Shown piece after piece: positions 8,479-63,503 of a stretch of 64,000 bases of DNA. The notes under the pieces are model-generated. The model was given only the letters and a program-made list of their open reading frames with translations. It ran no database searches and was not told the origin of the DNA. This DNA comes from Verrucomicrobiia bacterium (lineage in GTDB: Bacteria; Verrucomicrobiota; Verrucomicrobiia; Limisphaerales; UBA11358). The stretch is taken from NCBI GenBank assembly GCA_035945675.1, contig DASZAB010000034.1, positions 30,255 to 94,254 on the forward strand, in the 5' to 3' direction. The position numbers were made by a program, and so were the translations under genes. The first letter of the stretch is position 1. The number at the start of each line of letters is the position of its first letter.

Positions 8479-8524
8479 AACGCCCGATTCAAACGGCCAT
8501 GCGGCGGCGATGCCATTTGGAAAT

Positions 8525-8603
8525 TTCGGTGGGCGGGTGTCCTCGCGAGCCGGCTCGTCAGGAGCCACGCCCCCCCAAAAATGTACTGTTACCGCCGACG
8601 CGG
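8525..8603 (+). repeat. Family A palindromic element, copy A1 (intergenic)
   Basis: GGTGGGCGGGTGTCCTCGCGAGCCGGCTCGTCAGGAGCCACGCCCCC plus shared flank AAAATGTAC..TACC. Homologous to the copies at 22144, 55646, 58070 and 61988. Confidence 0.8.
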
Positions 8604-8755
8604 CAGTAACCTGATTTGAGGTTTGGGTCCCGCGTTCACGCGGTCCCGGGCCGCCTAACGGCGGAACTCCGGGCAAATTCAGGACAGTACCGCCGCCGCG
8701 CGTTCGTTGACACTGATTTTCCCGGCTGTTAGCTTTGTTCCTTCTGAAAGTCACG

Positions 8756-11700: not shown

Positions 11701-11779
11701 GGATGTCGGCTCGAATCCGGAGCACCCGACCATTTGCGGGCGTTGCGTCGCGGCGGTGCTGCAAGCCAAAGCATCATAG
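8756..11779 (+). CDS. ileS: Isoleucine--tRNA ligase (type 1, C-terminal zinc finger)
   Basis: HIGH region [16 protein letters not shown]-like [16 protein letters not shown]-terminal CERCWHW..CGRC. ATG at 8756 ([16 protein letters not shown]). Confidence 0.97.
10049..10105 (+). repeat. In-frame palindromic insertion 1 in ileS
   Basis: 17-nt imperfect inverted repeat GAGGGCACTGCTTCGTC / GACGAAGCGCCGCCCTC, 57 nt in total. Encodes [19 protein letters not shown]. The segment is absent from the E. coli IleS sequence as I recall it. Confidence 0.7.
10508..10579 (+). repeat. In-frame hairpin-repeat insertion 2 in ileS
   Basis: Perfect hairpin GACAGGC-ttccc-GCCTGTC (10512-10530) plus a decayed second arm GAGACAGCCAAGATGCCGGTC. 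Encodes [24 protein letters not shown], just before the GSDQHRGWF motif. Confidence 0.65.
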
Positions 11780-12667: not shown

Positions 12668-13807
12668 TCAACCTTGCGCCGGCTGCTGCTGCGTGAGGCA
12701 GTGCAACGTACCGCGACCGAGAACCAGGTCCACCGCGTGGAGGCCCACGACCGGCCGGTCTTTGAACAGTTCGCCCAAAATCCCCAGGGCAAGGCGGTCG
12801 TTGGGATCATTAAATGTCGGGACCAGGACGGCGGCGTTGCCGATGTAGAAATTTGCATAGCTCGCGGGCAAACGTTGGCTGTCAAAATAAAGCGGCGACG
12901 GCATGGGCAGCTCGACCACCTCCGGCTTGCCGCCGTCTTCCAGCCGTAGATCCCGGATGCGCTCCCGGTTTTCGGCGAGCGGGCGGTAATTCACGTCTTT
13001 TGAATTTTTTTCGCGCACCAGCACAAGCGTCCTGGGATTAACGAAGCGGCAAATGTCGTCAATGTGCCCGTGGGTGTCATCGCCGACCGGGCCCTTGGCC
13101 AGCCAAAAGACGTTCCGGACACCAAGATAATTTTTCAACGTCTTCTCGATTTCTGTTTTGCCGAGGCCGGGATTGCGGACCTGGACTTTAGGATCGAGGT
13201 AACATTGCTCCGTTGAGAGCAGCGTGCCGCGGCCGTTCAACTCGATGCCGCCGCCTTCAATGACGAATGGCCGGCCGTGGCATTCGGCGTGAAAAAGTTT
13301 CATTCGCAAAATGCGCGCGGCGGTCTCGGGCACTTTTGCGTCCTTGCGCCAGTTGCGGTATCTGGCCCAGCCGTTGAAATGGAAATGAACGATGGCGGTC
13401 TCGGTTTTGCCCTCACCCGGCCTCCGGCCACCCTCTCCCATCGGATGGGAGAGGGACAGGGGTGAGGGTCGTTTGACAAAAATCGGGCCGCTATCGCGCA
13501 TCCAGCTCCGATTCGTCGGGTGCACGGTAAACCGGATTTTCTCCAAATTGCAGCCGGCGCACTTGAGGATTCGGCGCGCAGAATTTTCCTCGGCTTGGTG
13601 GCGGACGAGAATGCAAACAATTTCACCCGGGGAAATTTTTCGCACCATTTCACCATAGACCCAGGGAATAACGGCGAATTTGCCCGGCCAGTCGCTGGCG
13701 TTATGCGGCCAGCTGAGCCAGGTGGCTTCATGCGGTTCCCATTCTGCCGGCATCCGGTAGCCCAGGTCGGCGGGAGTTGCTGTGTTTGCGGATTGCAGGT
13801 TCACCAT
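12668..13807 (-). CDS. aguA: Agmatine deiminase (PAD_porph family)
   Basis: YRMPAEWEPHEATWLSWP, RDSGPIFV, FNGWA, DDTHGHIDD, and C-terminal GTLHCLTQQQP with the catalytic Cys. ATG at 13807 chosen. Confidence 0.85.
   Translation of the reverse strand: MVNLQSANTATPADLGYRMPAEWEPHEATWLSWPHNASDWPGKFAVIPWVYGEMVRKISPGEIVCILVRHQAEENSARRILKCAGCNLEKIRFTVHPTNRSWMRDSGPIFVKRPSPLSLSHPMGEGGRRPGEGKTETAIVHFHFNGWARYRNWRKDAKVPETAARILRMKLFHAECHGRPFVIEGGGIELNGRGTLLSTEQCYLDPKVQVRNPGLGKTEIEKTLKNYLGVRNVFWLAKGPVGDDTHGHIDDICRFVNPRTLVLVREKNSKDVNYRPLAENRERIRDLRLEDGGKPEVVELPMPSPLYFDSQRLPASYANFYIGNAAVLVPTFNDPNDRLALGILGELFKDRPVVGLHAVDLVLGRGTLHCLTQQQPAQG
13410..13468. repeat. In-frame palindromic insertion in the agmatine deiminase gene
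   Basis: Perfect 12-bp arms CCCTCTCCCATC / GATGGGAGAGGG, nested in CCCTCACC..GGTGAGGG. Encodes PSPLSLSHPMGEGGRRPGEG between the conserved RDSGPIFV and FNGWA motifs. Confidence 0.75.
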
Positions 13808-14047
13808 AAAGGTGCGCCGAGCATAATCACCTGGCCCGCTCTCGGAAATCTTGAAACGCCGTTCACTGGCTGGAGCAGCAGGGTTTACAGGGGGGATTGG
13901 TTGAGCTTCCAACCATTATAATCGCCCACATTACGAATTAGTTCAAATGAAATATTTTTAAAAAAGTGACAGTGATCGGGTGCAAATCCACCTCCCTTGA
14001 ACGACCATAAATCAGGAACAGCGATTGCTCACAACGGTCTCGCTCTT

Positions 14048-21182: not shown

Positions 21183-21247
21183 CAGGAGCCGAGGTGACGA
21201 GGCTCTGATCTTCATAATTATTAGAGCCTCCTCACGTCGGCTCCTAC
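21183..21247. repeat. Family B-like double-arm hairpin element (copy B4), 8 nt after the hldD stop
   Basis: AGGAGCCGAGGTGACGAGGCTC ... GAGCCTCCTCACGTCGGCTCCT. The arms are near-complementary. Confidence 0.7.
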
Positions 21248-21312
21248 CGGATCCGATGAACTTCACAATAACGTGACTTGCCTTGACAGCGATCCACGTC
21301 AATCCTTGTTGC

Positions 21313-24036
21313 GTGAAAGGCAAATCGTTCATCCACCTTGGAATTATTGTGCTGGCCGCGCTCGGCTTTCATTGTTTTGGCGGTGATTTCGACCAGACCA
21401 CCGAAATCGTCGGTCGTAACCCCAGCGGCTTTGAAACGCCGGTCAATCAACTCGTCACGCCCGCCGGAACGCCCGTCGAACTTCCCGGCCTGCGGCCGAA
21501 TGCACTCGCACTGAGTCCGGACGGCGAACGGCTCGTGACCGCCGGCCTGACGCAACGACTGATCGTCATCAATCCGGCAACCGGAACAATCCTGCAGCGC
21601 GTGCGGTTGCCCGCCGACGACAAAATTCCGCAGGCCGGATCCGTTTCCAGCGGCATTCTCCAACCGAACGAGAAGGCCAAGCTCAGTTTCACCGGCCTCG
21701 TCTTTTCGCCTGATGGCTCACGGATATACCTGGCCAACGTCAACGGCGACATCAAGGTTTTCAGCGTTGACGCGGACCATAAAGTCACGCCGTTGTTCTC
21801 CCTTCCGCTGCCGCCGGCCAACGCGCCGTTGCGCCAGGCCGAAATTCCGGCCGGGATCGCCGTTTCTTCAGACGGCAGGGAGCTTTACGTTGCCGGCAAC
21901 CTTTCTAATCACCTCCTTGAACTCGACGCCGTGACCGGGAAAGTTCTGCGGACTTGGGACACAGGTGTTGCGCCTTTCGATGTCGTCCTCTGCAAAAATA
22001 AAATTTATGTGAGCAACTGGGGTGGGCGGCGGCCGGGCCCGGACAGCCTGACCGGTCCGGCCGGCAACGGCATGAGGGTGCGTGTGGACGCGCGTTCCAT
22101 TGCCAGCGAAGGCTCGGTCTCGGTGATTGATTTGACAGAAGCTGGTGGGGCGAGCGTCCTCGCGAGCCATGGCAACGAGGGCTCGTCGGTAGCCTCGCCC
22201 CGCCCAATCCAGGAACTCCGGACCGGTTTGCATGCCTGCGCCCTGGCGTTAGCGCCCAATGGCCGTTGGCTGGTCGTCGCCAACGCGGGCAGCGACACGC
22301 TGAGCGTGATTGACACGCGGACGGACAAAATCTTCGAGACGATCTGTGCGCGGCAGAACCCGGCGGATTTATTTGGCGCGCAACCCAACGCGCTGGCCTT
22401 CGATAAAAAAGGCAAAACCCTGTTCGTTTGCAACGGCACCCAAAATGCCGTCGCCGTTTTCCGCTTCCAACCCGGCAAATCCAAATTGCTGGGCCTGATA
22501 CCCGTCGGCTGGTTCCCCGGTTCCATTGCGTATGATGCGAAGCGGAAGGAAATTTACGTGGCGAACATTAAAAACCTCAGTCCGGGGATTCGAAGTCACA
22601 CCGGCGAAACGGAGTTCAATTCCAAGGAATATTATGGTTCTCTGTCGCTCGTGCCAGTGCCGTCGAAAAGGGAATTGGCCAGGTTCACCCGGATTGCGCT
22701 GGCGGATTTGCGTTATCCGCTGCTCGCGCAGGCTGCGTTGCCGGCGCGACCCGATCAACCGTCGCGGCCGGTGCCGGAGCGGGCTGGCGAGCCGAGCGTT
22801 TTTCATCACGTCATCTACATCATCAAGGAAAACCGCACTTATGATCAGGTTCTGGGCGATGTCAAGGAAGGCAACGGCGACGCGAATTTGTGCACGTTCG
22901 GCGAGGCCGTCACTCCCAACCAACACAAGCTCGTACGCGATTTCGTGCTGCTGGACAACACGTACTGTTGCAGCATCCTCAGCGCGGACGGCCATCAATG
23001 GGCGGACACAGGCATCGCGATGGATTACGTGGAGCGCGGGTTTGCCGGCTGGCCGCGCAGCTATCCGGCGGGCGGTTTTGGCGAGGAAGGCCGGGACGCG
23101 CTGGCCTATTCACCGGCGGGTTTCATCTGGAACGACGCGCTCGCGCACGGCAAAACGGTTTGTGATTTCGGGGAATTCACCACCGCTCACAAACAATGGA
23201 AGGATTCCCGCCGCAAAGGTGAACCGGATTTTCTCGATTGTTACCACGATTTCCTGGCCGACTCGAATGCGATTGCCTATGCCTGCGAGCCGGACATCGA
23301 GGCGCTGCAACCTTATCTCATGACGAACACGATTGGCTGGGATTTGGACGTGCCGGACATCTGGCGCGCCGCGCAATTCGGCAAAGACCTGAAACAATTT
23401 GAAGCGGCAGACAATCTGCCAAATCTGGTCATCCTCTGGTTGCCGAACGACCACACCAGCGGCACCGCGTTCGGTTCGCCCACGCCCGCGGCGCAGGTGG
23501 CGGACAACGACCTGGCGGTCGGGCAGGTGGTCGAGGCTGTCAGCCACAGCAAGTATTGGAAGGACACGTGCATTTTTGCGGTGGAAGACGATCCGCAGAA
23601 CGGCTGGGACCACGTGAGCGGCTACCGCACCACCGCCTACGTCGCCAGCGCCTATACCCGTCGCGGCGCCGTGGTCAGCACCCAATACAATCAGACCAGT
23701 TTGCTGCGCACGATGGAACTCATGCTCGGGTTGCCGCCGATGAACCAGATGGATGCGACGGCCACGCCGATGTTCGATTGTTTCACCAACACGGCGGACT
23801 TCACACCGTTTACCGCCGTGGCCAACCAGACGCCGCTCGACCAAATGAATCCACCGCCGAAGAAAATTTCCGACGCGCGGCTGCGCAAGGACGCCTACGT
23901 ATCCGCGCGCTTGCCGCTCAAGAAGGAAGATCAATGCCCGGAAGACGTGTTCAATCGCATCTTATGGGATGCGACCAAAGGTCCGCAGACGCCGTATCCG
24001 GTCTGGGCGGTCAAAGCGCTGGATGACGATGATTGA
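21313..24036 (+). CDS. Secreted YncE-like beta-propeller fused to a phosphoesterase (phospholipase C / AcpA family) domain
   Basis: GTG 21313 gives the signal peptide KGKSFIHLGIIVLAALGF. Propeller repeats (LSPDG, FSPDGSRIYLAN, SSDGRELYVAG). Phosphoesterase motifs VIYIIKENRTYDQVLGD, LPNDHTSG, VEDDPQNGWDHV. Confidence 0.85.
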   Translation: MKGKSFIHLGIIVLAALGFHCFGGDFDQTTEIVGRNPSGFETPVNQLVTPAGTPVELPGLRPNALALSPDGERLVTAGLTQRLIVINPATGTILQRVRLPADDKIPQAGSVSSGILQPNEKAKLSFTGLVFSPDGSRIYLANVNGDIKVFSVDADHKVTPLFSLPLPPANAPLRQAEIPAGIAVSSDGRELYVAGNLSNHLLELDAVTGKVLRTWDTGVAPFDVVLCKNKIYVSNWGGRRPGPDSLTGPAGNGMRVRVDARSIASEGSVSVIDLTEAGGASVLASHGNEGSSVASPRPIQELRTGLHACALALAPNGRWLVVANAGSDTLSVIDTRTDKIFETICARQNPADLFGAQPNALAFDKKGKTLFVCNGTQNAVAVFRFQPGKSKLLGLIPVGWFPGSIAYDAKRKEIYVANIKNLSPGIRSHTGETEFNSKEYYGSLSLVPVPSKRELARFTRIALADLRYPLLAQAALPARPDQPSRPVPERAGEPSVFHHVIYIIKENRTYDQVLGDVKEGNGDANLCTFGEAVTPNQHKLVRDFVLLDNTYCCSILSADGHQWADTGIAMDYVERGFAGWPRSYPAGGFGEEGRDALAYSPAGFIWNDALAHGKTVCDFGEFTTAHKQWKDSRRKGEPDFLDCYHDFLADSNAIAYACEPDIEALQPYLMTNTIGWDLDVPDIWRAAQFGKDLKQFEAADNLPNLVILWLPNDHTSGTAFGSPTPAAQVADNDLAVGQVVEAVSHSKYWKDTCIFAVEDDPQNGWDHVSGYRTTAYVASAYTRRGAVVSTQYNQTSLLRTMELMLGLPPMNQMDATATPMFDCFTNTADFTPFTAVANQTPLDQMNPPPKKISDARLRKDAYVSARLPLKKEDQCPEDVFNRILWDATKGPQTPYPVWAVKALDDDD
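22144..22205 (+). repeat. Family A palindromic element, copy A2, in frame inside the phosphoesterase CDS
   Basis: GGTGGGGCGAGCGTCCTCGCGAGCC..GGCTCGTCGGTAGCCTCGCCCCGCCC, translated as GGASVLASHGNEGSSVASPRP. Confidence 0.85.
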
Positions 24037-46759: not shown

Positions 46760-47764
46760 ATGAATCCAAATCCGCATGTGGCCGTGGTGGGCGCAACCGG
46801 CGCCGTCGGCATCGAAATGATCAAGACGCTGGAAAAGAGAAACTTCCCGGCGGGCCAACTGACGTTGCTCGCCTCGGCGCGCTCCGTCGGCAAAAAGCTC
46901 AAATTTTGCGGCCAGGACGTTACGGTCAAGGAATTAACGAAGGACTCCTTCGCCGGCATTGATATTGCGCTGTTCAGCGCGGGCGGCAGCATTTCGAAGG
47001 AATACGCGCCCATTGCGGCGAAGGCCGGCTGCGTGGTCGTGGACAATTCCAGCGCCTTTCGTCAGGACGACAGCGTGCCGCTGGTGATTCCCGAAATCAA
47101 CGCCGCGGACGTGAATTGGCACAAAGGCATCATCGCCAATCCGAACTGCACCACCGCCATTACCCTGATGGCGCTGTACCCGTTGCATGCCGCGTTTGGC
47201 TGCAAGCGCATTTTTGCGTCCAGTTACCAGGCGGTTTCCGGCGCCGGTGCCAAGGCAATGGAAGAATTGAAACGGCAGGTTGGCGAAATCGTTTCCGGCA
47301 AGCCGGCAACGAAAGAGGCTTTTCCACATCAAATCGCTTTCAACGTGTTGCCGCAAGTGGATGTCTTTCTGCCGACCGGCTACACCAGGGAAGAAATGAA
47401 GATGGAAAACGAAGGCCGCAAAATCATGCATCATCCGAATTTCCGGGCGAGCGTCACCTGCGTGCGCGTGCCGGTGTATCGCTCGCATTCCATCGCCGTG
47501 AGCGCAGAATTTGAGAAGCCGGTCAGCGTGGACGCTGCACGTGCCGTTTTGAAAAAGGCGCCTGGCCTCGACCTGGTGGACGAGCCGGAGAACAAAAAAT
47601 ATCCGATGCCATTGTTCACCTCGGAGAAGTACAACTGTGAAGTCGGCCGCGTCCGAAAAGATTGCGCGTTGGAAAATGGCTTGTGTTTCTGGGTAAGCGG
47701 CGACCAGTTGCTCAAGGGCGCGGCGCTCAACGCGGTTCAGATTGCGGAAGAGTTGCTCAAATAA
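46760..47764 (+). CDS. asd: Aspartate-semialdehyde dehydrogenase
   Basis: VAVVGATGAVG, IIANPNCTT (active-site Cys), SYQAVSGAG, VRVPVYRSHS. ATG 46760 chosen within ORF 46619..47764. Confidence 0.95.
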   Translation: MNPNPHVAVVGATGAVGIEMIKTLEKRNFPAGQLTLLASARSVGKKLKFCGQDVTVKELTKDSFAGIDIALFSAGGSISKEYAPIAAKAGCVVVDNSSAFRQDDSVPLVIPEINAADVNWHKGIIANPNCTTAITLMALYPLHAAFGCKRIFASSYQAVSGAGAKAMEELKRQVGEIVSGKPATKEAFPHQIAFNVLPQVDVFLPTGYTREEMKMENEGRKIMHHPNFRASVTCVRVPVYRSHSIAVSAEFEKPVSVDAARAVLKKAPGLDLVDEPENKKYPMPLFTSEKYNCEVGRVRKDCALENGLCFWVSGDQLLKGAALNAVQIAEELLK

Positions 47765-47769
47765 TTTCC

Positions 47770-47841
47770 GTAGCAGCCGACATGAGTCGGCTCAAACTTT
47801 GGGGATGGGGGAGTAAGGAGCGGACTCACGTCCGCTGCTAC
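47770..47841. repeat. Family B composite double-hairpin element, copy B1 (6 nt after the asd stop)
   Basis: GTAGCAGCCGACATGAGTCGGCTC..GAGCGGACTCACGTCCGCTGCTAC. Each arm is a hairpin, and the outer GTAGCAGC/GCTGCTAC closes the element. Confidence 0.85.
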
Positions 47842-48216
47842 AAAGAGTTACTGCGTGGCGAGCCGATAGAAACCACTGCGATTAAACCAGGGACTAAAGA
47901 TTTACAACAGCGTGTCCTGCCGCCGGGGGGAACATTGGCGCTGATGGCGCCGTAATTCCAAGCTTCATATAACAAATTTGCACCTTTCATTGAAAGCCGC
48001 TCGGGTTTTTGCCGGACTTGCCTGCTTTCACTGATGTCCCAAAGCTGACTAAAGCTGTCCCAAGATGGCGTAGATGTAATTCTTTTATTCAGCGAAAATC
48101 ACCGGCGTGCAAACTCAATTTGCACAGAACCAGACCACCCCTGTGAAAGAATGAGTTGTGGCTCGGCCGTCGAGCCGGAAGTCGCTTTCCACAGTGGTCA
48201 AAATAAGAAAGAAAAC

Positions 48217-48879
48217 ATGAAAAAACTACAAATAGCAGTACTCACAATCAGTTTGACCGTCGCCATGAGTGCCAGCGCGGCTATCTATACGTATTCGGGC
48301 AGTGATTTTAATAACGGTGCCCTGATAGGTTCATATAATGGCACTTATGTATCCGCACCTTCCGGCCACATGAACCTGGCCTACATCGTCCCAACCGATG
48401 ACGCGGTGGTTGGCGCCAAAGGCCCGTTTGGGACGTTGAATGATCTCAGCATGAGCTTTGACTATTCCAATCTGGTTGGCGGGAATGGCAATCAGCCGTA
48501 TGCGGCCTTCGGCCTGTCCGTGGATGGCACGTGGGGTGGGTCGGCGCAAGAATACCTGGTCATCGCCATGAGCGGTAACCAGCTCGATGGAACGACTCCG
48601 ATTCACGTCTTTGACGCTACTCACAATACCGACACTGGCGTGACCTGGGGTTCAACGATGGCCAGCATTCTCGGCGCGACTGATACCTACAGCGGCGGCC
48701 TCACTTTCGGAAACATGCAGGTTATGAGGGCCTATGCGTATATTGGAGATTGGCCCGGCGTGGGAAATGTCAGCGTGGACATCAACTCCATCACCGTCAC
48801 CTCAGTGCCTGAACCCACGACAATGGCGTTATTCGCGGGCGGAGCGCTGCTGTTGATTTCCCTGCGACGCAAAGGTTGA
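48217..48879 (+). CDS. PEP-CTERM sorting domain protein
   Basis: Signal peptide MKKLQIAVLTISLTVAMSASA. C-terminal VPEPTTMALFAGGALLLISLRRKG. Confidence 0.8.
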   Translation: MKKLQIAVLTISLTVAMSASAAIYTYSGSDFNNGALIGSYNGTYVSAPSGHMNLAYIVPTDDAVVGAKGPFGTLNDLSMSFDYSNLVGGNGNQPYAAFGLSVDGTWGGSAQEYLVIAMSGNQLDGTTPIHVFDATHNTDTGVTWGSTMASILGATDTYSGGLTFGNMQVMRAYAYIGDWPGVGNVSVDINSITVTSVPEPTTMALFAGGALLLISLRRKG

Positions 48880-49034
48880 GCCACTTTCGGATTCTCCGTT
48901 ACGAAACAAGCCGGTCTCATTGGCCGGCTTGATTTTTGTCGAGCGTTGATGGGTTCCTTTATGGTCCTGCGGAAACGCTGCGGAATGGGTTCGGGAAAAC
49001 CGAAATATTTCACACCAACACGGGGCGACCGTAT

Positions 49035-50075
49035 TCAAGCCAATTTCATGACAGGCCGGGCGCTTACTTTCGGGTGATTCAACGTGGTCACCCCGCATGG
49101 CAAGGGAGTGGGAGAACCGCTGGGAATACACTCATTGAGGGTCCGCAAGCTCTTTGCACCACCGACTCTCGGGTTTGGGGCCTCTCCTCGTGACAGCGGG
49201 CACAAGCCGTTGCTTCGCAGTGAACAATTCACGCTGTCAAGGTTCACATCCGCCTGCCGGGTTTGAACTTCTATCACCAGCTTTCGCCACTGACCCGGAC
49301 TGGCGCCGAACCGTTTCTTAAAGTGTATGTTAAAAAAGCTCAGATGACTGAATCCGCATTCCTCGGCCACGCGGATAATTTTGGTGTCCGGGTTTTTTAA
49401 TAAAGACACGGCTTTGAGCAGGCGCATTTCCATTTTCAAGGCCGCCGCGGAAACGCCAAAGCGTTGATGAAACAAACGATTCAGGTGGCGCCGACTGCAA
49501 CCGAATTTGTTCGCCAGTCCGCCGACCGGCAAGCTCAGGAGTTCGGCGGTTGATAACTTTTCGATGATCCCGGCCAGGGGTTTCTCATCCCGGACAGACC
49601 TGTTTGGTTGCGGCGGTACCGTTTCAAATTCCACCGCGAGCGGGACGGCCGCGACCCGTAACAGTTGACTGCGATGATCGAGGTCGAACCGGGAAGGGAC
49701 GTCTCTTAAAAGCCGGCGGCATTTCTGGGCCGGCGCACTGGACGCCGGATACAGTCGCGCGCTTCGGAAAACGTCGCTGACGTTTTGCAATCGATAGATC
49801 TCATTGTTGGCAAGCAGCGGGAGAAAATGTTCCAAACGCAGTGAGAAGTGCTCAAACACGATCTTGCCTTGGTCAGGGACATGAAGTCTGCCTCCGGACA
49901 CGGCGCTTGCGACCAGAACATCGCCAGAGGAAACCGGGTACCTGACCAGGCCGGAGATGTAGTCTGCAGCTCCGGCCCGGACAAAGATAAAAACCAGTCC
50001 CGCTCCCTTGCAATCCCAAACTTCAGGCGGTTCAAGACTAACCGATCGCAGTTTCAAGTGGCCCTGGGTAATCAT
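49035..50075 (-). CDS. AraC family transcriptional regulator
   Basis: C-terminal double HTH: RHLNRLFHQRFGVSAAALKMEMRLLKA..ECGFSHLSFFNIHFKKRFGASPGQWR. Confidence 0.85.
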   Translation of the reverse strand: MITQGHLKLRSVSLEPPEVWDCKGAGLVFIFVRAGAADYISGLVRYPVSSGDVLVASAVSGGRLHVPDQGKIVFEHFSLRLEHFLPLLANNEIYRLQNVSDVFRSARLYPASSAPAQKCRRLLRDVPSRFDLDHRSQLLRVAAVPLAVEFETVPPQPNRSVRDEKPLAGIIEKLSTAELLSLPVGGLANKFGCSRRHLNRLFHQRFGVSAAALKMEMRLLKAVSLLKNPDTKIIRVAEECGFSHLSFFNIHFKKRFGASPGQWRKLVIEVQTRQADVNLDSVNCSLRSNGLCPLSRGEAPNPRVGGAKSLRTLNECIPSGSPTPLPCGVTTLNHPKVSARPVMKLA

Positions 50076-50279
50076 CTGACGCCTCCCTCACATCCCATCC
50101 GGGTGCGAAACAGCCGCGACGGGCGGTGGAGTTCTGAGATGTTCCATAGATTGCCAGTTGAAGTCTTTGCATTTGACCATCTTTTAAAAATATTGTCAAG
50201 AGAACATGTTACTTATGATAAGCATAATGCGACGTGTTCACGCAGTGCCAATCGCGGAAGAATTGATTAAATAACCCTC

Positions 50280-50350
50280 GTAGCAGCCGATGTGAATCGG
50301 CTCAATCTTTGGGGAAGGGGCATAATGAGCGGACTCACGTCCGCTGCTAC
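50280..50350. repeat. Family B composite double-hairpin element, copy B2
   Basis: GTAGCAGCCGATGTGAATCGGCTC..GAGCGGACTCACGTCCGCTGCTAC. Compensatory C:G to T:A change in arm 1 relative to B1. Confidence 0.85.
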
Positions 50351-53768: not shown

Positions 53769-53845
53769 CGGGGCGTAGCGTAGCCTGGTAGCGCGCTTGT
53801 TTCGGGTACAAGAGGTCGTGAGTTCGAATCTCACCGCCCCGACCA
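53769..53845 (+). tRNA. tRNA-Pro (anticodon CGG), CCA encoded
   Basis: Acceptor CGGGGCG/CGCCCCG. D arm GCGT-AGCCTGGTA-GCGC. Anticodon stem CTTGT/ACAAG with loop TTCGGGT. T arm GTGAG-TTCGAAT-CTCAC. Discriminator A followed by CCA. Confidence 0.93.
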
Positions 53846-54100: not shown

Positions 54101-55756
54101 TTATTTTTCCAGGTTGTATCTGACGAAATCCAGGTCGGCGGTCCCCCCATTGGGCCCGTAGCAAAACAATGCCAGCCGCGCACCCTTCCATTTGCCGAAC
54201 TTCAATTCCACCGCCAGTCCGGTGTCGGTGTAGTGTTCGCCATCGGTACTGTAGAACAGTCGCGCCTCCTTCCCATGGTACTTGCCCCGGAACCATACGT
54301 CAGCGCCCTTTAACACCGGGCCCGCGCCATTTTCCAAGGCGATTCGCCGCACTCCGTCGCTCTGCGTTACCCCAACCCAGTCAAACCTGTCGCCGCTCAT
54401 AAAGGCAAATCCGGTGCATTGGTTTTCCGCCATGGCGCTGACATCGAACTTTGTGTCAATGAGGCCGTCCTGTCCCAACAATTTTTCGGTCAGGGTGTTG
54501 TGGGCGGTGGACAGGCCGGAGGCGGGCAAGGCGTTGAGTCGCAGCCAGCCGGGCCGGGCCGTCAGTGACCAGGAGTCATTCATTGGGTTGTGGTTCCATT
54601 GCCAGATCGGAGACAGCACCGGATCGTCGAAATCGTCGCTTCTTTGTGGATGATGAATGGGAGAAGGCCGTCCGACATAAGGTTTTTTCCATCGGTCCAC
54701 CGACTGGCCGTGATCGCCGAACACCGGCCAGTCATCTGTGCCCCAGGTGACCGGCATCAGGTAGGTGATACGTCCAAGGAAACCGCTGGATTTGAAGCAC
54801 AGAAACCACCATTGACCATCAGCCAGTTCCACGAGCGCGCCTTGATGCGGACTGCCATCAGGCAACACCACCCGCCGTTCGTACGGGCCATAAATATTGG
54901 TGGAACGGAGCATCGTCTGGCCGCCCGTGCCGACGCCGCCTTCCGGAAGGGATATGTAATACCAGCCGTTCCGTTTGAAGAGTTTTGGGCCTTCCGCCGT
55001 CGGGCCGTGATAAATTTCAACACCGTCATCCAGCAATCGCACCCCGTCCGGGCTCATGCGGTGCAGAATCAATGGGCCGGCACCCTTGAGACTATGAATG
55101 AGGTACGCCTGCCCGTCGTCATCCCAGAACGGGCAGGGATCTTCCCAGCGTTCCACGGCCCGAACGGTGAACGTTCGCGACCACGGCCCGGCTGGATTTT
55201 GGGCGTGCCACATGAATAAACCTTCGGACGGAGTACAGACGAAGACGTAATAGGTACCGTTGTGATAACGCAAGGTCGGCGCCCACGTCCCCTCACCATA
55301 GCCGGTCAGGTCATCGTACTTTGGCGACATGCTCAACCGGTGGAATACCTGGCCGATGACTTCCCAATTGACGAGATCGCGCGAATGCAACACCTGCATG
55401 CCGACGAAGTGAAAATCCGACGCGACCAGATAAAAATCGTTCCGGACGCGAATGACGTCAGGATCGGAATAATCCGCGGGCAGGACCGGATTTCGATAGG
55501 TGCCGTCGCCCTGGTCACCCCAGCTCAGTGGCGATTCGGCGGGAATGGCCGGCGGGGCCGGTTGACTGGCGGCGGTAAAGCTCATCATCATGATGCCGGT
55601 AAAAAGCGAAATGGCGCCTTTTCGGGTGAAAGTATATTCCGCAACTTTCGGTGGGGCGAGCGTCCTCGCAAGCCGGCTCGTCAGTAGCCTCGCCCCATCA
55701 AAATGTACCACTACCCGTTTCCATAGGGCGCGGATGGTTTGGGACCGGTTTACCAT
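54101..55756 (-). CDS. Glycoside hydrolase family 43 protein with C-terminal beta-sandwich domain
   Basis: YRNPVLPADYSDPDVIRVRNDFYLVAS, WAPTLRYHNGTYY, EGPKLFKRNGWYY (GH43 blades). The start is uncertain (55756 or the MMM at 55591) because a family A repeat lies in the 5' part. Confidence 0.85.
   Translation of the reverse strand: MVNRSQTIRALWKRVVVHFDGARLLTSRLARTLAPPKVAEYTFTRKGAISLFTGIMMMSFTAASQPAPPAIPAESPLSWGDQGDGTYRNPVLPADYSDPDVIRVRNDFYLVASDFHFVGMQVLHSRDLVNWEVIGQVFHRLSMSPKYDDLTGYGEGTWAPTLRYHNGTYYVFVCTPSEGLFMWHAQNPAGPWSRTFTVRAVERWEDPCPFWDDDGQAYLIHSLKGAGPLILHRMSPDGVRLLDDGVEIYHGPTAEGPKLFKRNGWYYISLPEGGVGTGGQTMLRSTNIYGPYERRVVLPDGSPHQGALVELADGQWWFLCFKSSGFLGRITYLMPVTWGTDDWPVFGDHGQSVDRWKKPYVGRPSPIHHPQRSDDFDDPVLSPIWQWNHNPMNDSWSLTARPGWLRLNALPASGLSTAHNTLTEKLLGQDGLIDTKFDVSAMAENQCTGFAFMSGDRFDWVGVTQSDGVRRIALENGAGPVLKGADVWFRGKYHGKEARLFYSTDGEHYTDTGLAVELKFGKWKGARLALFCYGPNGGTADLDFVRYNLEK
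55646..55722 (+). repeat. Family A palindromic element, copy A3 (inside the 5' part of the GH43 ORF, inverted relative to the gene)
   Basis: TTTCGGTGGGGCGAGCGTCCTCGCAAGCCGGCTCGTCAGTAGCCTCGCCCCATCAAAATGTACCACTACC. Near-identical to A1, including the flanks. Confidence 0.85.
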
Positions 55757-57023: not shown

Positions 57024-57136
57024 GTGCTCGTGCCCGATAAAATCAGCGTCCTCCAAAATGCGTCACCGGACACGGAAAAACAAGGAACGTTTTGATTGGA
57101 TTCTTCAGGGTCAGCCCCGCAGACTCTGCCTCCATT

Positions 57137-58036
57137 ATGAAAATCATCTTGTTTCTGTGCCTGCTCTTGCCCGGGTTGGCCGCCGCGCCATTGACGTTTG
57201 CTGAAAGCGTCATCGCCCCGGGTGCAAAACTTGAAAAGCTGGCCGGCGGTTTTGCCTTTACCGAGGGCCCTACCTGCGACAAGGCGGGCGATGTGTTTTT
57301 CGTGGACCAACCGAATAACCGCATCATGGAATGGAACGTGGCGGGAGAATTGTCCACGTTTATGCAGCCGTCCAGTTACGCCAATGGAATGATGTTTGAT
57401 GCGGACGGCAACCTGATTGCCTGCGCCGATGAGCACAACGAGCTTTGGTCCATCACCCCCGACAAAAAAGTGACGGTGCTGGTCAAAAACTATCAGGGCA
57501 AATATCTCAACGGTCCGAACGATGTCTGGGTTGCGCCAAACGGCGCCATGTACCTCACTGACCCGTTTTACCTGCGCAAATGGTGGGACCACGACACCAT
57601 GGCGCTGCCGAACCAGGAGGTGTTTTATCTTTCAGCGGACGGGAAAAATCTGGTGCGGGTGACGGACGATTTGAAAAAGCCGAACGGCATCACCGGCACG
57701 CCGGATGGCAAAACGCTCTTCGTCGCCGATATTCAGGCGGACCGGACGTGGCGTTATGACATTTTGCCGGATGGCTCGCTGACGAACAAAACGCTGTTTT
57801 GTGCAAAAGGTTCGGATGGCATGACGATTGACGAAGACGGCGATCTTTATCTTTGCGGTCATGGCGTGACTGTCTTCGACAAAACCGGCCGGCAGATAGA
57901 GCACATCGACGTGACGGAACCGTGGACGGCCAACGTCAGCTTTGGCGGCAAAGACCACAGGAGCTTGTTCATCACCGCGAGCAAGTCGCTCTATTCAATT
58001 CAACTGCGTGTCAAAGGGGCGAACCCGGCAAAATGA
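57137..58036 (+). CDS. SMP-30/gluconolactonase/LRE family protein (secreted)
   Basis: Signal peptide. FTEGPTCD, ANGMMFDADGNL, NGPNDVWVAPNGAMYLTDP, PNGITGTPDGKTLFVAD, GSDGMTIDEDGDLY. Confidence 0.85.
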   Translation: MKIILFLCLLLPGLAAAPLTFAESVIAPGAKLEKLAGGFAFTEGPTCDKAGDVFFVDQPNNRIMEWNVAGELSTFMQPSSYANGMMFDADGNLIACADEHNELWSITPDKKVTVLVKNYQGKYLNGPNDVWVAPNGAMYLTDPFYLRKWWDHDTMALPNQEVFYLSADGKNLVRVTDDLKKPNGITGTPDGKTLFVADIQADRTWRYDILPDGSLTNKTLFCAKGSDGMTIDEDGDLYLCGHGVTVFDKTGRQIEHIDVTEPWTANVSFGGKDHRSLFITASKSLYSIQLRVKGANPAK

Positions 58037-58069: not shown

Positions 58070-58137
58070 GGTGGGGCGAGCGTCCCCGCGAGCCGGACGT
58101 GGCGCGCCGAAGCTTTGCGAAGGCGGCTCCTCAGTAG
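58070..58137 (+). repeat. Family A element, copy A4 (intergenic, variant centre)
   Basis: GGTGGGGCGAGCGTCCCCGCGAGCCGG..GGCTCCTCAGTAG. Confidence 0.75.
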
Positions 58138-60133: not shown

Positions 60134-60625
60134 TCAATTGGCCGAGCGCAGGATGACGTTCGTGGTGAACAACAGGATCATGATGACGTTGATCGAGAAC
60201 TTGCCCACGATGCCCACGAACAAACCGAGCGTTGCGCCCAGGCCGGCCTTGGCGGCCGGTTTCCATTCCCGGCCGCCAGTCAATTCCAGCAAGGTTGCGC
60301 CAATAAAAGGGCCGATAATGATTCCCGGCAAGCCGAAGAAAAGGCCGATGATGCCGCCGAGCACCGCACCCGCCGCCCCGCGCCAGGTCGCACCGAATTT
60401 GTTGGCTCCCAACCAACCCGCCACAAAGTCAAACACCAGCGCGATGACTGTGAGCAAGACCAGGATGATCAACACGGATTGATTGACGCTGGCCGGGCCA
60501 AAACAAAGCCTGTGACCAACTGCTGCTGCCAGCACGAGCAGGGTGCCGGGGAATCCCGGCACGAGTCCGCCAATCAGCCCCGCCAGCATCACCAGCAGGG
60601 TCAGGCTCAGACCAATGGTTTCCAT
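60134..60625 (-). CDS. DUF456 family membrane protein
   Basis: ATG 60625. LAGLIGGLVPGFPGTLLV, DFVAGWLGANKFGAT, GLPGIIIGPFIGA are typical DUF456 segments. Confidence 0.8.
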   Translation of the reverse strand: METIGLSLTLLVMLAGLIGGLVPGFPGTLLVLAAAVGHRLCFGPASVNQSVLIILVLLTVIALVFDFVAGWLGANKFGATWRGAAGAVLGGIIGLFFGLPGIIIGPFIGATLLELTGGREWKPAAKAGLGATLGLFVGIVGKFSINVIMILLFTTNVILRSAN

Positions 60626-60645
60626 CGACGTCACGGGATGAAATT

Positions 60646-60703
60646 GTAGCAGCGAACGTAAGTTCGCTCCAATTGAAATGAGCCGACTCACGTCGGCTGC
60701 TAC
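60646..60703. repeat. Family B element, copy B3 (short spacer)
   Basis: GTAGCAGCGAACGTAAGTTCGCTC..GAGCCGACTCACGTCGGCTGCTAC. Lies between the divergent DUF456 and lipoprotein genes. Confidence 0.8.
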
Positions 60704-60763
60704 GAAATACTGCAATGACCTTGATTCGGTTTGGATTTGGTTCTACAAGGAGGTCGCGCCTTT

Positions 60764-61157: not shown

Positions 61158-63296
61158 TTACTTCCTCGTCCGCTTCAATTTTTTATAACTCACCGGCTTC
61201 GCTTCCGGTTTTTCGCCGTTGACCATGCGTTTCAATTCCTTGATCTGGTCGCGGAGCAGGGCGGCTTTTTCAAATTCCAGCTTTTCCGCCGCTGCCAGCA
61301 TTTCGGTTTCGAGTTCGCTGATGGTTTCCGTCAGGTCCACGTCCATTGCGGCATCTTTCAGGACGGACGCGCCGGCTTCGCGTTTCGATTCGTAAACGGC
61401 CAGGCTTTCTTCAACCGCGCGGCTGACGCTGCGGGGTGTGATGTTGTGTTCCGCGTTGTAAGCGATTTGTTTTTGGCGGCGATATTCGGTCACGGCCAGA
61501 AATCTGTTGATGCTGTTCGTCATCACGTCGGCATAGAGAATCACCTCACCGTGCAAATGCCGCGCGGCGCGGCCCGCGGTCTGGATCAAACTCGTTTCAC
61601 TGCGCAGAAAACCTTCCTTGTCCGCGTCGAGGATCGCCACCAATGAAACTTCCGGCAAATCCAGACCTTCCCGCAACAGGTTGATGCCGACGAGCACATC
61701 GAATTCGCCTTTGCGGAGCGAACGCAAAATCTCCACGCGCTCAATGGCGTCAATCTCACTGTGGAGATACTGGACGTTGACGCCGATGCCGCGCAGGTAA
61801 TCGGTCAGTTCCTCGGCAGTGCGTTTGGTGAGTGTCGTTACAAGGATGCGCTCCTTCGCCTCGGCACGTTTGCGGCATTCCTCGATCAGATCGTCGATCT
61901 GGCCTTTGAGCGGTTTGAGCGTGACCTTGGGGTCGATCAGACCGGTGGGGCGCACCACGAGTTCGACGACGCCCGGCATTTGTTGGTGGGGCGAGGCTAC
62001 TGACGAGCCGGCTGTTTCGATTCGGCTCGCGGGGACGCTCGCCCCACCGTTCGATTCGGCTCGCGGGGACGCTCGCCCCGCGGTGGCACTTTCCCGCGAC
62101 CATTCCAGTTCGCGTTTGGCCGGAGTGGCGCTGACGTAAATCGTCTGGCCTTGCATTCCTTGAAATTCCTCGAATTTCAGCGGGCGATTATCCAGCGCAC
62201 TCGGCAGGCGGAAACCGTACTCAACCAAAACGGTCTTCCGCGAGCGGTCCCCTTCGAACATCGCGCCGATTTGCGGGACGGTCGCGTGAGATTCATCAAT
62301 CACCAGCAGGTAATCGTTCGGAAAAAAGTCAATGACGGTTGCCGGGCGCGAGCCGGGCGGGCGTCCGGCGATGTGGCGCGAATAATTTTCGATGCCGGAA
62401 CAGACGCCCATCTCCTCCATCATCTCCAGGTCGAATTCCGTGCGCTGCTTGATGCGCTGGGCTTCGAGCAGTTTGCCATTCTTTTCAAACCAGACGATGC
62501 GCTCGCGCAATTCCTCGCGGATGGCGAGAGCGGCGCGCTTCATCTTGTCGGCGGTGGTGACAAACTGCTTTCCCGGGAAAATGGTCACGGCGTCGAGCGT
62601 TTCGGTTTTGTTTCCCGTCAACGGATCGAAACGGGTGAGCCGCTCGATTTGCTCGCCGAAAAATTCGACGCGCAGGCCGTCTTCGCGCCCCGCTGGCCGG
62701 ACTTCCACGGTGTCACCGCGCACGCGGAAATGGCCGCGTTCGAACGCGATGTCATTCCGGTCGTACTGCAAATCCACCAGGCGCGCGAGGAGTTGCTCGC
62801 GCGAGATTTCCAGGCCGACGCGGATGGGAATGACCATCGCTTCGTAATCTTCCTTGCTGCCGATGCCGTAAATGCACGACACGCTGGCAACGACGACGAC
62901 ATCCCGGCGCGAGAACAGCGAACTCATGGTTGAGAGCCGCAGTCGCTCGATTTCTTCGTTCCGGCTGGAATCCTTCTCGATGAATGTGTCCGTGCGCGGG
63001 ATGTAGGCTTCCGGCTGGTAATAATCGAAGTAACTGACGAAGTATTCGACGGCGTTGCGGGGAAAAAATCCCTTGAACTCGGCGTAAAGCTGCGCGGCCA
63101 GTGTTTTGTTGTGGGAAATGACCAGCGTGGGTTTGTCCACGTTTTTGATGACGTTGGCGATGGCGAAGGTTTTCCCGGAGCCGGTGACGCCGAGGAGCGT
63201 CTGGTGTTTTGCGCCCGACAAAATGCCATCGGTCAGCTTCGCAATCGCTTGCGGCTGGTCACCGGCGGGCTGGAAGGGCGCGACGAGTTCGAACAT
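61158..63296 (-). CDS. uvrB: Excinuclease ABC subunit B
   Basis: GVTGSGKTF, DESH, YVSATP, VRPTGL, LREGLDLPEV, GRAARH, C-terminal UVR domain EKAALLRDQIKELK. ATG 63296. Confidence 0.97.
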   Translation of the reverse strand: MFELVAPFQPAGDQPQAIAKLTDGILSGAKHQTLLGVTGSGKTFAIANVIKNVDKPTLVISHNKTLAAQLYAEFKGFFPRNAVEYFVSYFDYYQPEAYIPRTDTFIEKDSSRNEEIERLRLSTMSSLFSRRDVVVVASVSCIYGIGSKEDYEAMVIPIRVGLEISREQLLARLVDLQYDRNDIAFERGHFRVRGDTVEVRPAGREDGLRVEFFGEQIERLTRFDPLTGNKTETLDAVTIFPGKQFVTTADKMKRAALAIREELRERIVWFEKNGKLLEAQRIKQRTEFDLEMMEEMGVCSGIENYSRHIAGRPPGSRPATVIDFFPNDYLLVIDESHATVPQIGAMFEGDRSRKTVLVEYGFRLPSALDNRPLKFEEFQGMQGQTIYVSATPAKRELEWSRESATAGRASPRAESNGGASVPASRIETAGSSVASPHQQMPGVVELVVRPTGLIDPKVTLKPLKGQIDDLIEECRKRAEAKERILVTTLTKRTAEELTDYLRGIGVNVQYLHSEIDAIERVEILRSLRKGEFDVLVGINLLREGLDLPEVSLVAILDADKEGFLRSETSLIQTAGRAARHLHGEVILYADVMTNSINRFLAVTEYRRQKQIAYNAEHNITPRSVSRAVEESLAVYESKREAGASVLKDAAMDVDLTETISELETEMLAAAEKLEFEKAALLRDQIKELKRMVNGEKPEAKPVSYKKLKRTRK
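61988..62083 (-). repeat. Family A element, copy A5, with a 34-nt tandem re-duplication of one arm, in frame inside uvrB
   Basis: GGGGCGAGGCTACTGACGAGCCGGC..TCGATTCGGCTCGCGGGGACGCTCGCCCC occurs twice. Translated as ATAGRASPRAESNGGASVPASRIETAGSSVASPH. Confidence 0.85.
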
Positions 63297-63503
63297 GCGA
63301 AATGAAGGTAGAAGCGGAACCAACGAGAGTCAATGAAGCGCCAGCCCGGCTCTAAAGTCTGGCAGGGCGCGTCACTCCGTGCGCGCCGTGGGCCCCGTAC
63401 GCCGGCAGGCAGGGGACCGCCCGTCCTGCCCAATTTGAAATCAGGCCTCCGATCCACCTCGGAGCTTCTCTTTATTGGAAAATCTGATTAGACTCCTTGT
63501 CCA

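Follow-up and report, generated by a model that had tools for sequence, protein, structure and literature searches.

Repetitive extragenic palindromes (REPs) are defined in the literature by a GT[AG]G head and a palindrome, the GTGG form being predominant in family GTAG-20 of Opitutus terrae (PMC3733652; REP tables in PMC3686654). REPs with GTAG or GTGG heads can also sit wholly inside open reading frames (ORFs), where they encode 7-80 residues (Di Nocera et al. 2013, BMC Genomics 14:522; PMC3733652). The top counts of intragenic GTAG and CGTC REPs were found in O. terrae (Verrucomicrobia) and R. conorii, respectively, and many of the targets belong to replication and repair, including uvrA, uvrB, uvrC, uvrD, recBCD and polA (PMC3733652). 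In recB of two Xanthomonas species, different REPs were observed at about the same site (PMC3733652). The present work deals with the uvrB gene in a 64,000-nt stretch of DNA from a Verrucomicrobiia bacterium (contig DASZAB010000034.1), called the window hereafter, and with an insert that this gene carries in frame. It is highly probable that the insert is a cluster of the REP or REPIN type (REP doublet forming a hairpin) with a GTGG head, made of two direct alpha units and an inverted beta' unit, translated within a permissive linker of the helicase and kept in frame by purifying selection. An odd insert in a core repair gene would in this way be explained by a documented phenomenon, the presence of REPs inside genes.

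Rickettsia palindromic elements (RPE), reportedly described by Ogata et al. in 2000 (cited in PMC3733652), are said to be palindromic inserts lying in frame in protein-coding genes. They have in common with the uvrB insert that palindromic repeats lie in frame in conserved and still functional genes and add peptide in permissive regions. On the contrary, RPE-1 is about 100-150 bp long and AT-rich, belongs to unrelated families and comes from an obligate intracellular alphaproteobacterium. For RPE, we are not aware of any report of families replacing each other at one site. The REP clusters of enterobacteria known as bacterial interspersed mosaic elements (BIMEs) form regularly spaced arrays in direct and inverted orientation. 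The uvrB insert is alike in its REP array with regular spacing in both orientations, whereas BIMEs occupy extragenic positions at gene 3' ends, with other unit sequences and linker motifs. REPINs, which are mobilised by REP-associated tyrosine transposases (RAYTs) (Bertels and Rainey 2011, PMC3116915; Nunvar et al. 2013, PMC3686654), resemble it as well, with two inverted REPs and a short spacer giving a long hairpin, many copies, and several REP classes that differ between related strains. They were described as extragenic, each family being linked to a RAYT, unlike the uvrB insert, which would be translated and for which a crude motif scan of the 64 kb detected no RAYT.

The likeness with the intragenic REPs of Di Nocera et al. 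extends to short palindromes headed by GT[AG]G, which are dispersed in the genome as single units, dimers and groups and are found in part within ORFs, with an enrichment in DNA-repair genes. In the text and figure legend of that paper, uvrB is named for R. conorii only (RC0550, residues 537-545 and 761-769), at other positions in the gene than that of the window insert (PMC3733652). That REPs lie inside repair genes, also in Verrucomicrobia, is known since 2013 (PMC3733652), and the uvrB insert of the window is of that kind. Within the literature searched, two features go beyond the published record and differ from the earlier cases: an array of direct alpha units whose copies are read in two frames, and the scale of family turnover at one site, with at least nine families in more than 100 related lineages.

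The open frame of uvrB (61158..63323, minus strand) reaches a TTG at 63323 and encodes 721 aa. Pfam matches of this ORF are ResIII, UvrB_inter, Helicase_C, UvrB and UVR above cut-off and DEAD below cut-off. The product possesses the lobes 1a and 3 of a superfamily 2 (SF2) helicase, the UvrA-interaction domain, the UvrB-specific C-terminal region and the UVR motif, and it matches solved chains over its full length (best E = 3e-252, 2FDC_A). A recorded protein of 712 aa (P0001, 'excinuclease ABC subunit UvrB [Verrucomicrobiae bacterium]') is 100% identical to it; the exact 721-aa ORF was absent from the databases in the encoding-contig search, the records using a later start codon. With the insert excluded, comparison with the orthologue of locus L081 gave nonsynonymous over synonymous divergence (dN/dS) of 0.049/0.87 across 672 aligned codons, and that with six other orthologues gave 0.03-0.05 over dS 0.59-0.82. 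Purifying selection on this intact gene is strong (dN/dS ~0.05; 0.03-0.06 among the orthologues), and annotation should record the gene as intact. Insertion of a mobile repeat is a common route to gene inactivation, yet a decaying pseudogene disrupted by mobile DNA is extremely improbable here, given the full-length ORF, the integrity of all residues that are invariant in 47 homologues, the low dN/dS and an insert with neither stop codon nor frameshift in the frame in use. An earlier reading made from the sequence only had called uvrB an essential repair gene. The word is too strong, uvrB deletions being viable in model bacteria, and what stands of it is the strong purifying selection.

In UvrB, the stretch ESATAGRASPRAESNGGASVPASRIETAGSSVASPHQQ is found between ...YVSATPAKRELEWSR and MPGVVELVVRPTG, with ..EWSRESATAGR.. 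and ..SPHQQMPGVVELVVR.. as the peptide stretches at the insert. The peptide ESAT..HQQ is encoded by 62093..61980 on the minus strand, one base away from the interval 61979-62092 that the sequence-only reading had assigned to an insert of about 38 codons. The insert itself is confirmed; its bounds were set against the closest empty-site orthologue, L083 (..AGTGCC|GGCGTC.., i.e. ..CAGAGTGCC|GGCGTCGTC..), which brings it to 37 codons, a length that leaves uvrB in frame as had been claimed. One of the three sense frames across it is closed by a TAG within the beta' arm. It is strongly inferred from the intact and constrained gene that the insert is translated.

In the alignments with the two top-scoring solved UvrB chains, the match stops at query 408-411 and restarts at 448-451 while the chain has no gap, this being the only break, and in all 15 matched chains the first aligned stretch ends at query 407-411. 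Alignments were printed for the two highest-scoring chains only, the other 13 being known from the table of the first stretch. The insert is thereby placed after helicase motif III (SAT in YVSATP) and before VVELVVRPTGL, ahead of Helicase_C, which matches residues 476-589 in the 721-aa numbering. Because the UvrB helicase motifs sit in domains 1a and 3 with the ATP site between both (PMC7835731, PMC3458569), the insert most probably lies in the 1a-to-3 connection between the two helicase lobes, which agrees with the location between the ATPase lobes just before VRPTG that was first proposed. An intein or another self-removing insert was rejected, as the 37 aa compare with at least ~130 aa for a Hint domain with conserved Cys/Ser..His-Asn junctions, the junctions here are A/T and P/G, and there is no Pfam match at residues 409-447.

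At the DNA level, the insert consists of two units, each made of an alpha REP and a spacer, followed by a few added bases, an inverted beta' partner and a tail. Alpha and the reverse complement of beta' have a common head, GGTGGGGCGAG, and a common end, AGCC. The 25-nt alpha unit alone folds at -9.7 to -10.9 kcal/mol. The alpha2/beta' pair makes a hairpin of the REPIN type (-40.4 kcal/mol for alpha2..beta') whose stem is present in both the minimum free energy and the centroid folds. In these features, the units have REP anatomy, a GT[AG]G head with a short palindrome, mostly set in inverted pairs as REPIN. Alpha and alpha/beta' fold as the palindromic stem-loops of ~20-40 bp expected of REPs; (G)GTGGGG opens alpha2 and beta as well as the copies at 22144, 55650 and 58070, and GGTAGGG opens that of L082. 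Inverted pairing and clustering are observed as well, with alpha-beta' at 8524, 22144 and 55650, alpha-alpha-beta' in uvrB and arrays of 2-5 units in metagenome contigs. The copies in uvrB and at 22144 depart from the extragenic location, lying inside coding sequences, which does not bar REP membership because a minority of REPs is recognised as intragenic in the literature (PMC3733652).

The repeat, called family A, is dispersed, as the sequence-only reading had supposed. Relatives were found at ~8524-8581, 22144-22204, 55650-55701 and 58070-58095, so that with uvrB the 64 kb contain five loci, when 0.7 matches to a 17-mer would be expected by chance, and further copies are present in L001 and in 21 metagenome contigs. 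The likeness of the tail was established from the copies at 8579-8590 and 55700-55710 and from L081/L082. Flanking direct repeats that would mark a target-site duplication were absent at the family A copies 8524, 22144 and 55650, and no transposase family was matched in the eight window ORFs scanned. A tandem repeat rich in G, A, S, P and R whose length varies among relatives may evoke a low-complexity linker grown by replication slippage, with no part for a mobile repeat. This origin is hardly credible, as the arms are 96-100% identical to dispersed copies of the window (26/26 at 58070-58095, 27/27 at 55671-55697), copies of the arm occur in unrelated metagenome contigs, and the inserts of relatives match other dispersed families, the family D arm being identical to window 21224-21248 at 25/25 and the I type matching 13410-13455. 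Rfam had no family at gathering score for the insert. Its best match, Guanidine-II on the opposite strand (16.8 bits vs a cut-off of 32, E = 0.4), was taken as a chance match to two GC hairpins and rejected.

An exact 30-mer, GGGGCGAGCGTCCCCGCGAGCCGAATCGAA, occurs exactly twice on the minus strand (62016-62045 and 62050-62079) with a period of 34 nt, none being expected from 100 shuffles, and the 34-nt units are identical at 32/34 positions. The repeat came out of an exact-match search and a repeat search; Tandem Repeats Finder did not list it. Because 34 mod 3 = 1, the two copies are read in different frames, GRASPRAES in unit 1 and GGASVPASRIE in unit 2. Both the period and the change of frame had been seen from the sequence, and it was further proposed that the duplication and the surrounding indels were selected to preserve the reading frame. 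This proposal survives as a filtering of variants that are off frame or carry a stop; it does not as a special compensating event. Indeed, a scan of metagenome contigs for alpha-spacer-alpha gave 21 contigs, 0 with uvrB, with periods of 33-42 nt and 2-5 or more copies, the arrays being often closed by an inverted unit and some being in frame in other genes. For instance, L097 contains three 36-nt units and beta' in frame in a TatD-like hydrolase ORF, where GGASVPASRLAH is read three times, and L098 and L112 contain two 33-nt units nested in a C-type element within a 1635-aa ORF. Since direct arrays are normal for family A, the 34-nt repeat appears to be ordinary growth or homogenisation of a REP array and no one-off rescue event.

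The same alpha-alpha-beta' layout, with the 34-nt period and spacers of 9 and 14 nt, is present in uvrB of L081 (protein P0002, ENA ERZ25039590), at a core dS of 0.82-0.87. Its REP cores are identical at 24/25 positions, and over the first nine spacer positions the identity is 4/9 vs 8/9 in the window. On account of this difference in the spacers, the most likely origin of the exact 30-nt repeat of the window is that an array already in place was recently homogenised, or that a unit of it was duplicated again. The double-arm peptide pattern also occurs in P0114, P0117 and P0085, two of the three having a first spacer 12 nt longer, and a single alpha is found in P0008, P0010 and P0086. The single-arm insert of L082 (72 nt) and the double-arm insert (111 nt) are both in frame, the 39 nt between them being made up of 34 nt and 5 more in the spacer. 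An out-of-frame intermediate restored by indels need not be invoked.

Assembly is difficult for dispersed repeats that are short and GC-rich, unit 1 and unit 2 are nearly identical and the exact protein is known from one assembly, P0001 being a single-contig record. The 721-aa ORF is not on record either, although the different start codon explains it. A 34-nt tandem copy, or even a whole insert, produced by mis-joined repeat reads in a metagenome-assembled genome (MAG) is nevertheless very improbable because the layout recurs, with diverged sequence, in the independently assembled L081 at dS ~0.8. Moreover, the double-arm pattern of the three further proteins speaks against an artefact, and so does the assembled form, which is exactly in frame between constrained flanks when a random mis-join would be in frame 1/3 of the time.

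The sequence-only reading missed a wider pattern, namely that nearly all relatives hold some repeat at the same site of uvrB. The comparison set comprised the 120 closest UvrB proteins (82-100% identity), from Verrucomicrobiota MAGs. The genome-contig scan was dominated by universal UvrB motifs, its useful verrucomicrobial loci being L001-L003, and DNA of the orthologues was taken from contigs encoding the homologues. An insert of 16-58 extra residues (median 30) was found at the same position in 118 of the 120, all of which read through from SATP to RPTG, and this is the sole internal position at which the proteins vary in length. The site would be permissive, since what these close orthologues hold there is unrelated sequence. 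Only P0038 and P0111 have an empty site, and the more distant L002 and L003 are also without insert; the reading frame is intact in all four.

At least nine sequence families occupy the site, with no peptide motif in common. Family A (GRASSRAE..GSSVASPHQ) is present in 11 homologues and 3 composites. The others are family B (AGAP..GAPP; 26 homologues), C (PRPA..GEGRGEGQ..SPQPSPPLRGGEG; 20), D (SRREEAQ..SLLTSAAT; 15), E (GRAGSPLPA..RRAGDSAPYQ; 13), F (AAGILPA..GRMPAAT; 11), G (GTGVSPVS..RQDACAT; 7), I (LSHPMGEG; 5) and H (GVHASAC..LKxELQ; 4). Nested composites A+E, A+K and F+G were observed, as well as D+I in the more distant L001. In DNA, families A, D, E, F and G have heads of the GT[AG]G type with complementary C[CT]AC ends; the GC-rich elements of families B, C and I form hairpins of other kinds. 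The GTAG-19 peptides of O. terrae, GTGVSPV and HGRHARAT, are close to the family G arms GTGV[SP]PVS..[RG]QDA[CR]AT of the uvrB site (PMC3733652).

A common 10-nt right flank, rGArCGrCCC, precedes GGCGTC in L085, L088 and L090 (families B, D and G). It is missing at the empty site, is similar to the left flank CAGAGTGCC and does not concern family A; a target duplication that has since diverged, or a remnant of a previous occupant, may account for it. In parallel, UvrB of L006, a Chthoniobacteraceae MAG (~62% identical; uvrB ~11165-11400), was found to carry an unrelated insert of ~50 aa (..VGNTTYVPHSRTQMDPEDAVVVAGESALDRRKRAHSFVRVSRTDMPVEAFDVRTPGAP..) in the same inter-lobe place.

Between the window and L081, the insert shows dN 0.18 and dS 0.26, a ratio of ~0.67, from which little constraint on the insert peptide is observed. 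Its dS is one third of the core dS (0.87), which fits a REP sequence under constraint, or one converted from copies elsewhere in the genome. A rival reading is that of an adaptive module, in which a longer 1a-3 linker or an mRNA/DNA hairpin would tune the ATPase of UvrB, its domain motion or its expression, or would lower repair and raise mutability. Such a role would account for an insert kept in 118 of 120 orthologues despite family turnover, at a site that alone varies in length, and for an insert dS below that of the core; mutator effects of REP-tagged repair genes have moreover been put forward by Di Nocera et al. as speculation (PMC3733652). It is nonetheless unlikely, in view of the unrelated insert families devoid of a common motif, the ratio of ~0.67, the insert-free P0038, P0111, L002 and L003 with their intact frame, L083 (P0038), the sole empty-site orthologue tested, having a dN/dS of ~0.05, and the similar behaviour of sites in isoleucyl-tRNA synthetase (IleRS) and of an intergenic spacer, which suggests a general property of the repeats and no UvrB-specific function.

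According to the preferred reading of the insert as a translated REP cluster, the uvrB site would be one of few permissive slots of the lineage at which REP families settle, become nested and displace one another. The 34-nt direct repeat would arise by normal growth or homogenisation of the REP array, and the DNA would stay REP-like through constraint on the REP sequence or conversion from other copies. Selection would remove the variants whose length is not a multiple of 3, or in which the TAG of beta' comes in frame, and the reading frame would be kept in this way. At the protein level, the insert is inferred to be a tolerated and nearly neutral surface loop, probably disordered.

Besides the single assembly mentioned above, several points weigh against this interpretation. 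The proposed place in the three-dimensional structure has for basis the alignment to solved chains and the knowledge of SF2 helicase motifs. An AlphaFold2 model, built on an alignment of 47 sequences 83-95% identical to the query, had a mean predicted local distance difference test score (pLDDT) of 41 and was discarded. The RNA fold of the insert region was not significantly stabler than shuffles (z = -1.8), and no selected mRNA structure is claimed. No RAYT gene was detected in the 64-kb window by a crude six-frame scan for the Y..NP motif of Y1 transposases, so that mobilisation by a tyrosine transposase is assumed. Neighbour-joining trees of the orthologues (protein, dS, dN) were star-like and mutually inconsistent; the number of independent gains, an ancestral alpha-alpha-beta' and empty sites by excision were dropped for this reason. 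Finally, the near-universal occupancy (118/120) could mean that a longer loop has become useful, contrary to pure neutrality.

The uvrB linker appears, on comparative grounds, to belong to a group of permissive slots in which REPs are quickly replaced, since the IleRS sites and the folA-rpsA spacer show the same turnover. REPs were found in frame in four genes of the window: uvrB, a 917-aa ORF, ileS and an agmatine-deiminase-like ORF. The ileS gene (8753-11779, plus strand) contains repeat-derived in-frame segments at 10046-10117 and 10505-10579. Across 120 IleRS homologues, the two sites are either unoccupied or filled by repeats of differing families (e.g. RPEIRGKDKPFQCDMY at the second site). 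In the orthologous convergent folA-rpsA spacer of six genomes (L081, L083, L085, L086, L087 and L091), a different palindromic repeat was observed in each, adjoining a conserved terminator-like hairpin (AAACAGGCGGGCCG..CGGCCCGCCTG). The 917-aa ORF (21283-24036) has Lactonase/YNCE beta-propeller and Phosphoesterase Pfam matches, and its alpha arm at 22144-22206 is read in the frame of the second uvrB copy. The remaining ORF (12668-13912) is presumably agmatine-deiminase-like, and the repeat family that it holds also fills the uvrB site in L091/P0045.

A bolder extension, which we regard as tentative and on balance doubtful, is that the uvrB 1a-3 linker, the two ileS sites and at least one intergenic spacer are long-lived 'docking slots' in which unrelated REP families preferentially insert in or next to a resident REP and replace it. 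If so, occupancy would persist through the radiation of more than 100 lineages while the occupant changes. REP-into-REP homing, or exchange catalysed at common GT[AG]G heads, would then be a new aspect of REP population biology and would keep supplying core proteins with new peptide loops. One codon position of UvrB, occupied in 118 of 120 relatives by repeats of at least nine families, nested composites included, constitutes, with the similarly behaving IleRS sites and intergenic spacer, a natural data set in which to ask whether REPs are attracted to sites that already contain one or owe their distribution to selective filtering only, and how much foreign sequence the inter-lobe linker of a helicase can absorb. 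There is also a warning for annotation: GRASSRAE, GSSVASPHQ, AGAP..GAPP and SPQPSPPLRGGEG in verrucomicrobial proteins are translated repeats and not domains, and such peptides will mislead homology clustering.

Table. Coordinates of the uvrB gene, of the parts of its insert and of related repeats in the window.
Feature	Coordinates	Strand	Description
uvrB coding sequence	61158..63296	minus	start MFELV at 63296
Whole in-frame insert	61974..62084	minus	111 nt = 37 codons, TAGRASPRAESNGGASVPASRIETAGSSVASPHQQMP; from DNA comparison with L083 and L084
Leading base	62084	minus	A, first base of the insert, followed by unit 1
Unit 1	62050..62083	minus	alpha1 + 8-nt spacer GAATCGAA; read GRASPRAES
REP alpha1	62058-62083	minus	CCGCGGGGCGAGCGTCCCCGCGAGCC; degenerate head (CCGCGGGG)
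Unit 2	62016..62049	minus	alpha2 + spacer GAATCGAA; one frame over, read GGASVPASRIE
REP alpha2	62024-62049	minus	CGGTGGGGCGAGCGTCCCCGCGAGCC; intact GTGG head; 26/26 identical to the solo copy 58070-58095
Six added spacer bases	62010..62015	minus	ACAGCC; spacer 2 = 14 nt vs spacer 1 = 9 nt; brings the total to a multiple of 3
REP beta'	61985..62009	minus	GGCTCGTCAGTAGCCTCGCCCCACC; inverted partner; read GSSVASPH; inverted-repeat pairs I1, I2, I21
Tail	61974..61984	minus	AACAAATGCCG; resembles the ..CAAAAATG.. tail after other family A copies
Family A REPIN, in frame	22144..22206	plus	in the 917-aa ORF 21283-24036; read GGASVLASHGNEGSSVASPRP
Canonical family A REPIN (alpha-beta')	55650..55701	plus	folds at -27.5 kcal/mol; most likely between genes, ahead of the presumed true start of a gene like glycoside hydrolase family 43 (GH43)
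Diverged family A REPIN	8524..8581	plus	intergenic, ~170 nt upstream of ileS
Solo alpha REP	58070..58095	plus	34 nt downstream of the end of ORF 57092..58036; partner arm decayed
I/C-type in-frame hairpin repeat	13410-13455	minus	in minus-strand ORF 12668-13912; CCCTCTCCCATCGGATGGGAGAGGG, read ..SPLSLSHPMGEGGRRPGEG..

Other repeats of the window were noted away from uvrB. Two direct copies of ~112 nt, ~80% identical (47730-47841 and 50240-50350), each contain two D-type REPs (GTAGCAGCCGAC..) and bracket 2.4 kb with a PEP-CTERM protein and an AraC-type regulator; the region 47730-50350 may be a repeat-flanked cassette. The sole Rfam match of the window at gathering score is a tRNA gene (53769-53842, plus strand). 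Finally, a D-family REP pair (60644-60707) lies directly upstream of a DUF456 gene (60134-60715, minus strand), and as the first ~30 residues of the listed ORF (MQYFVAADVSRLIS..) are translated repeat, the true start of DUF456 is probably the later METIG.

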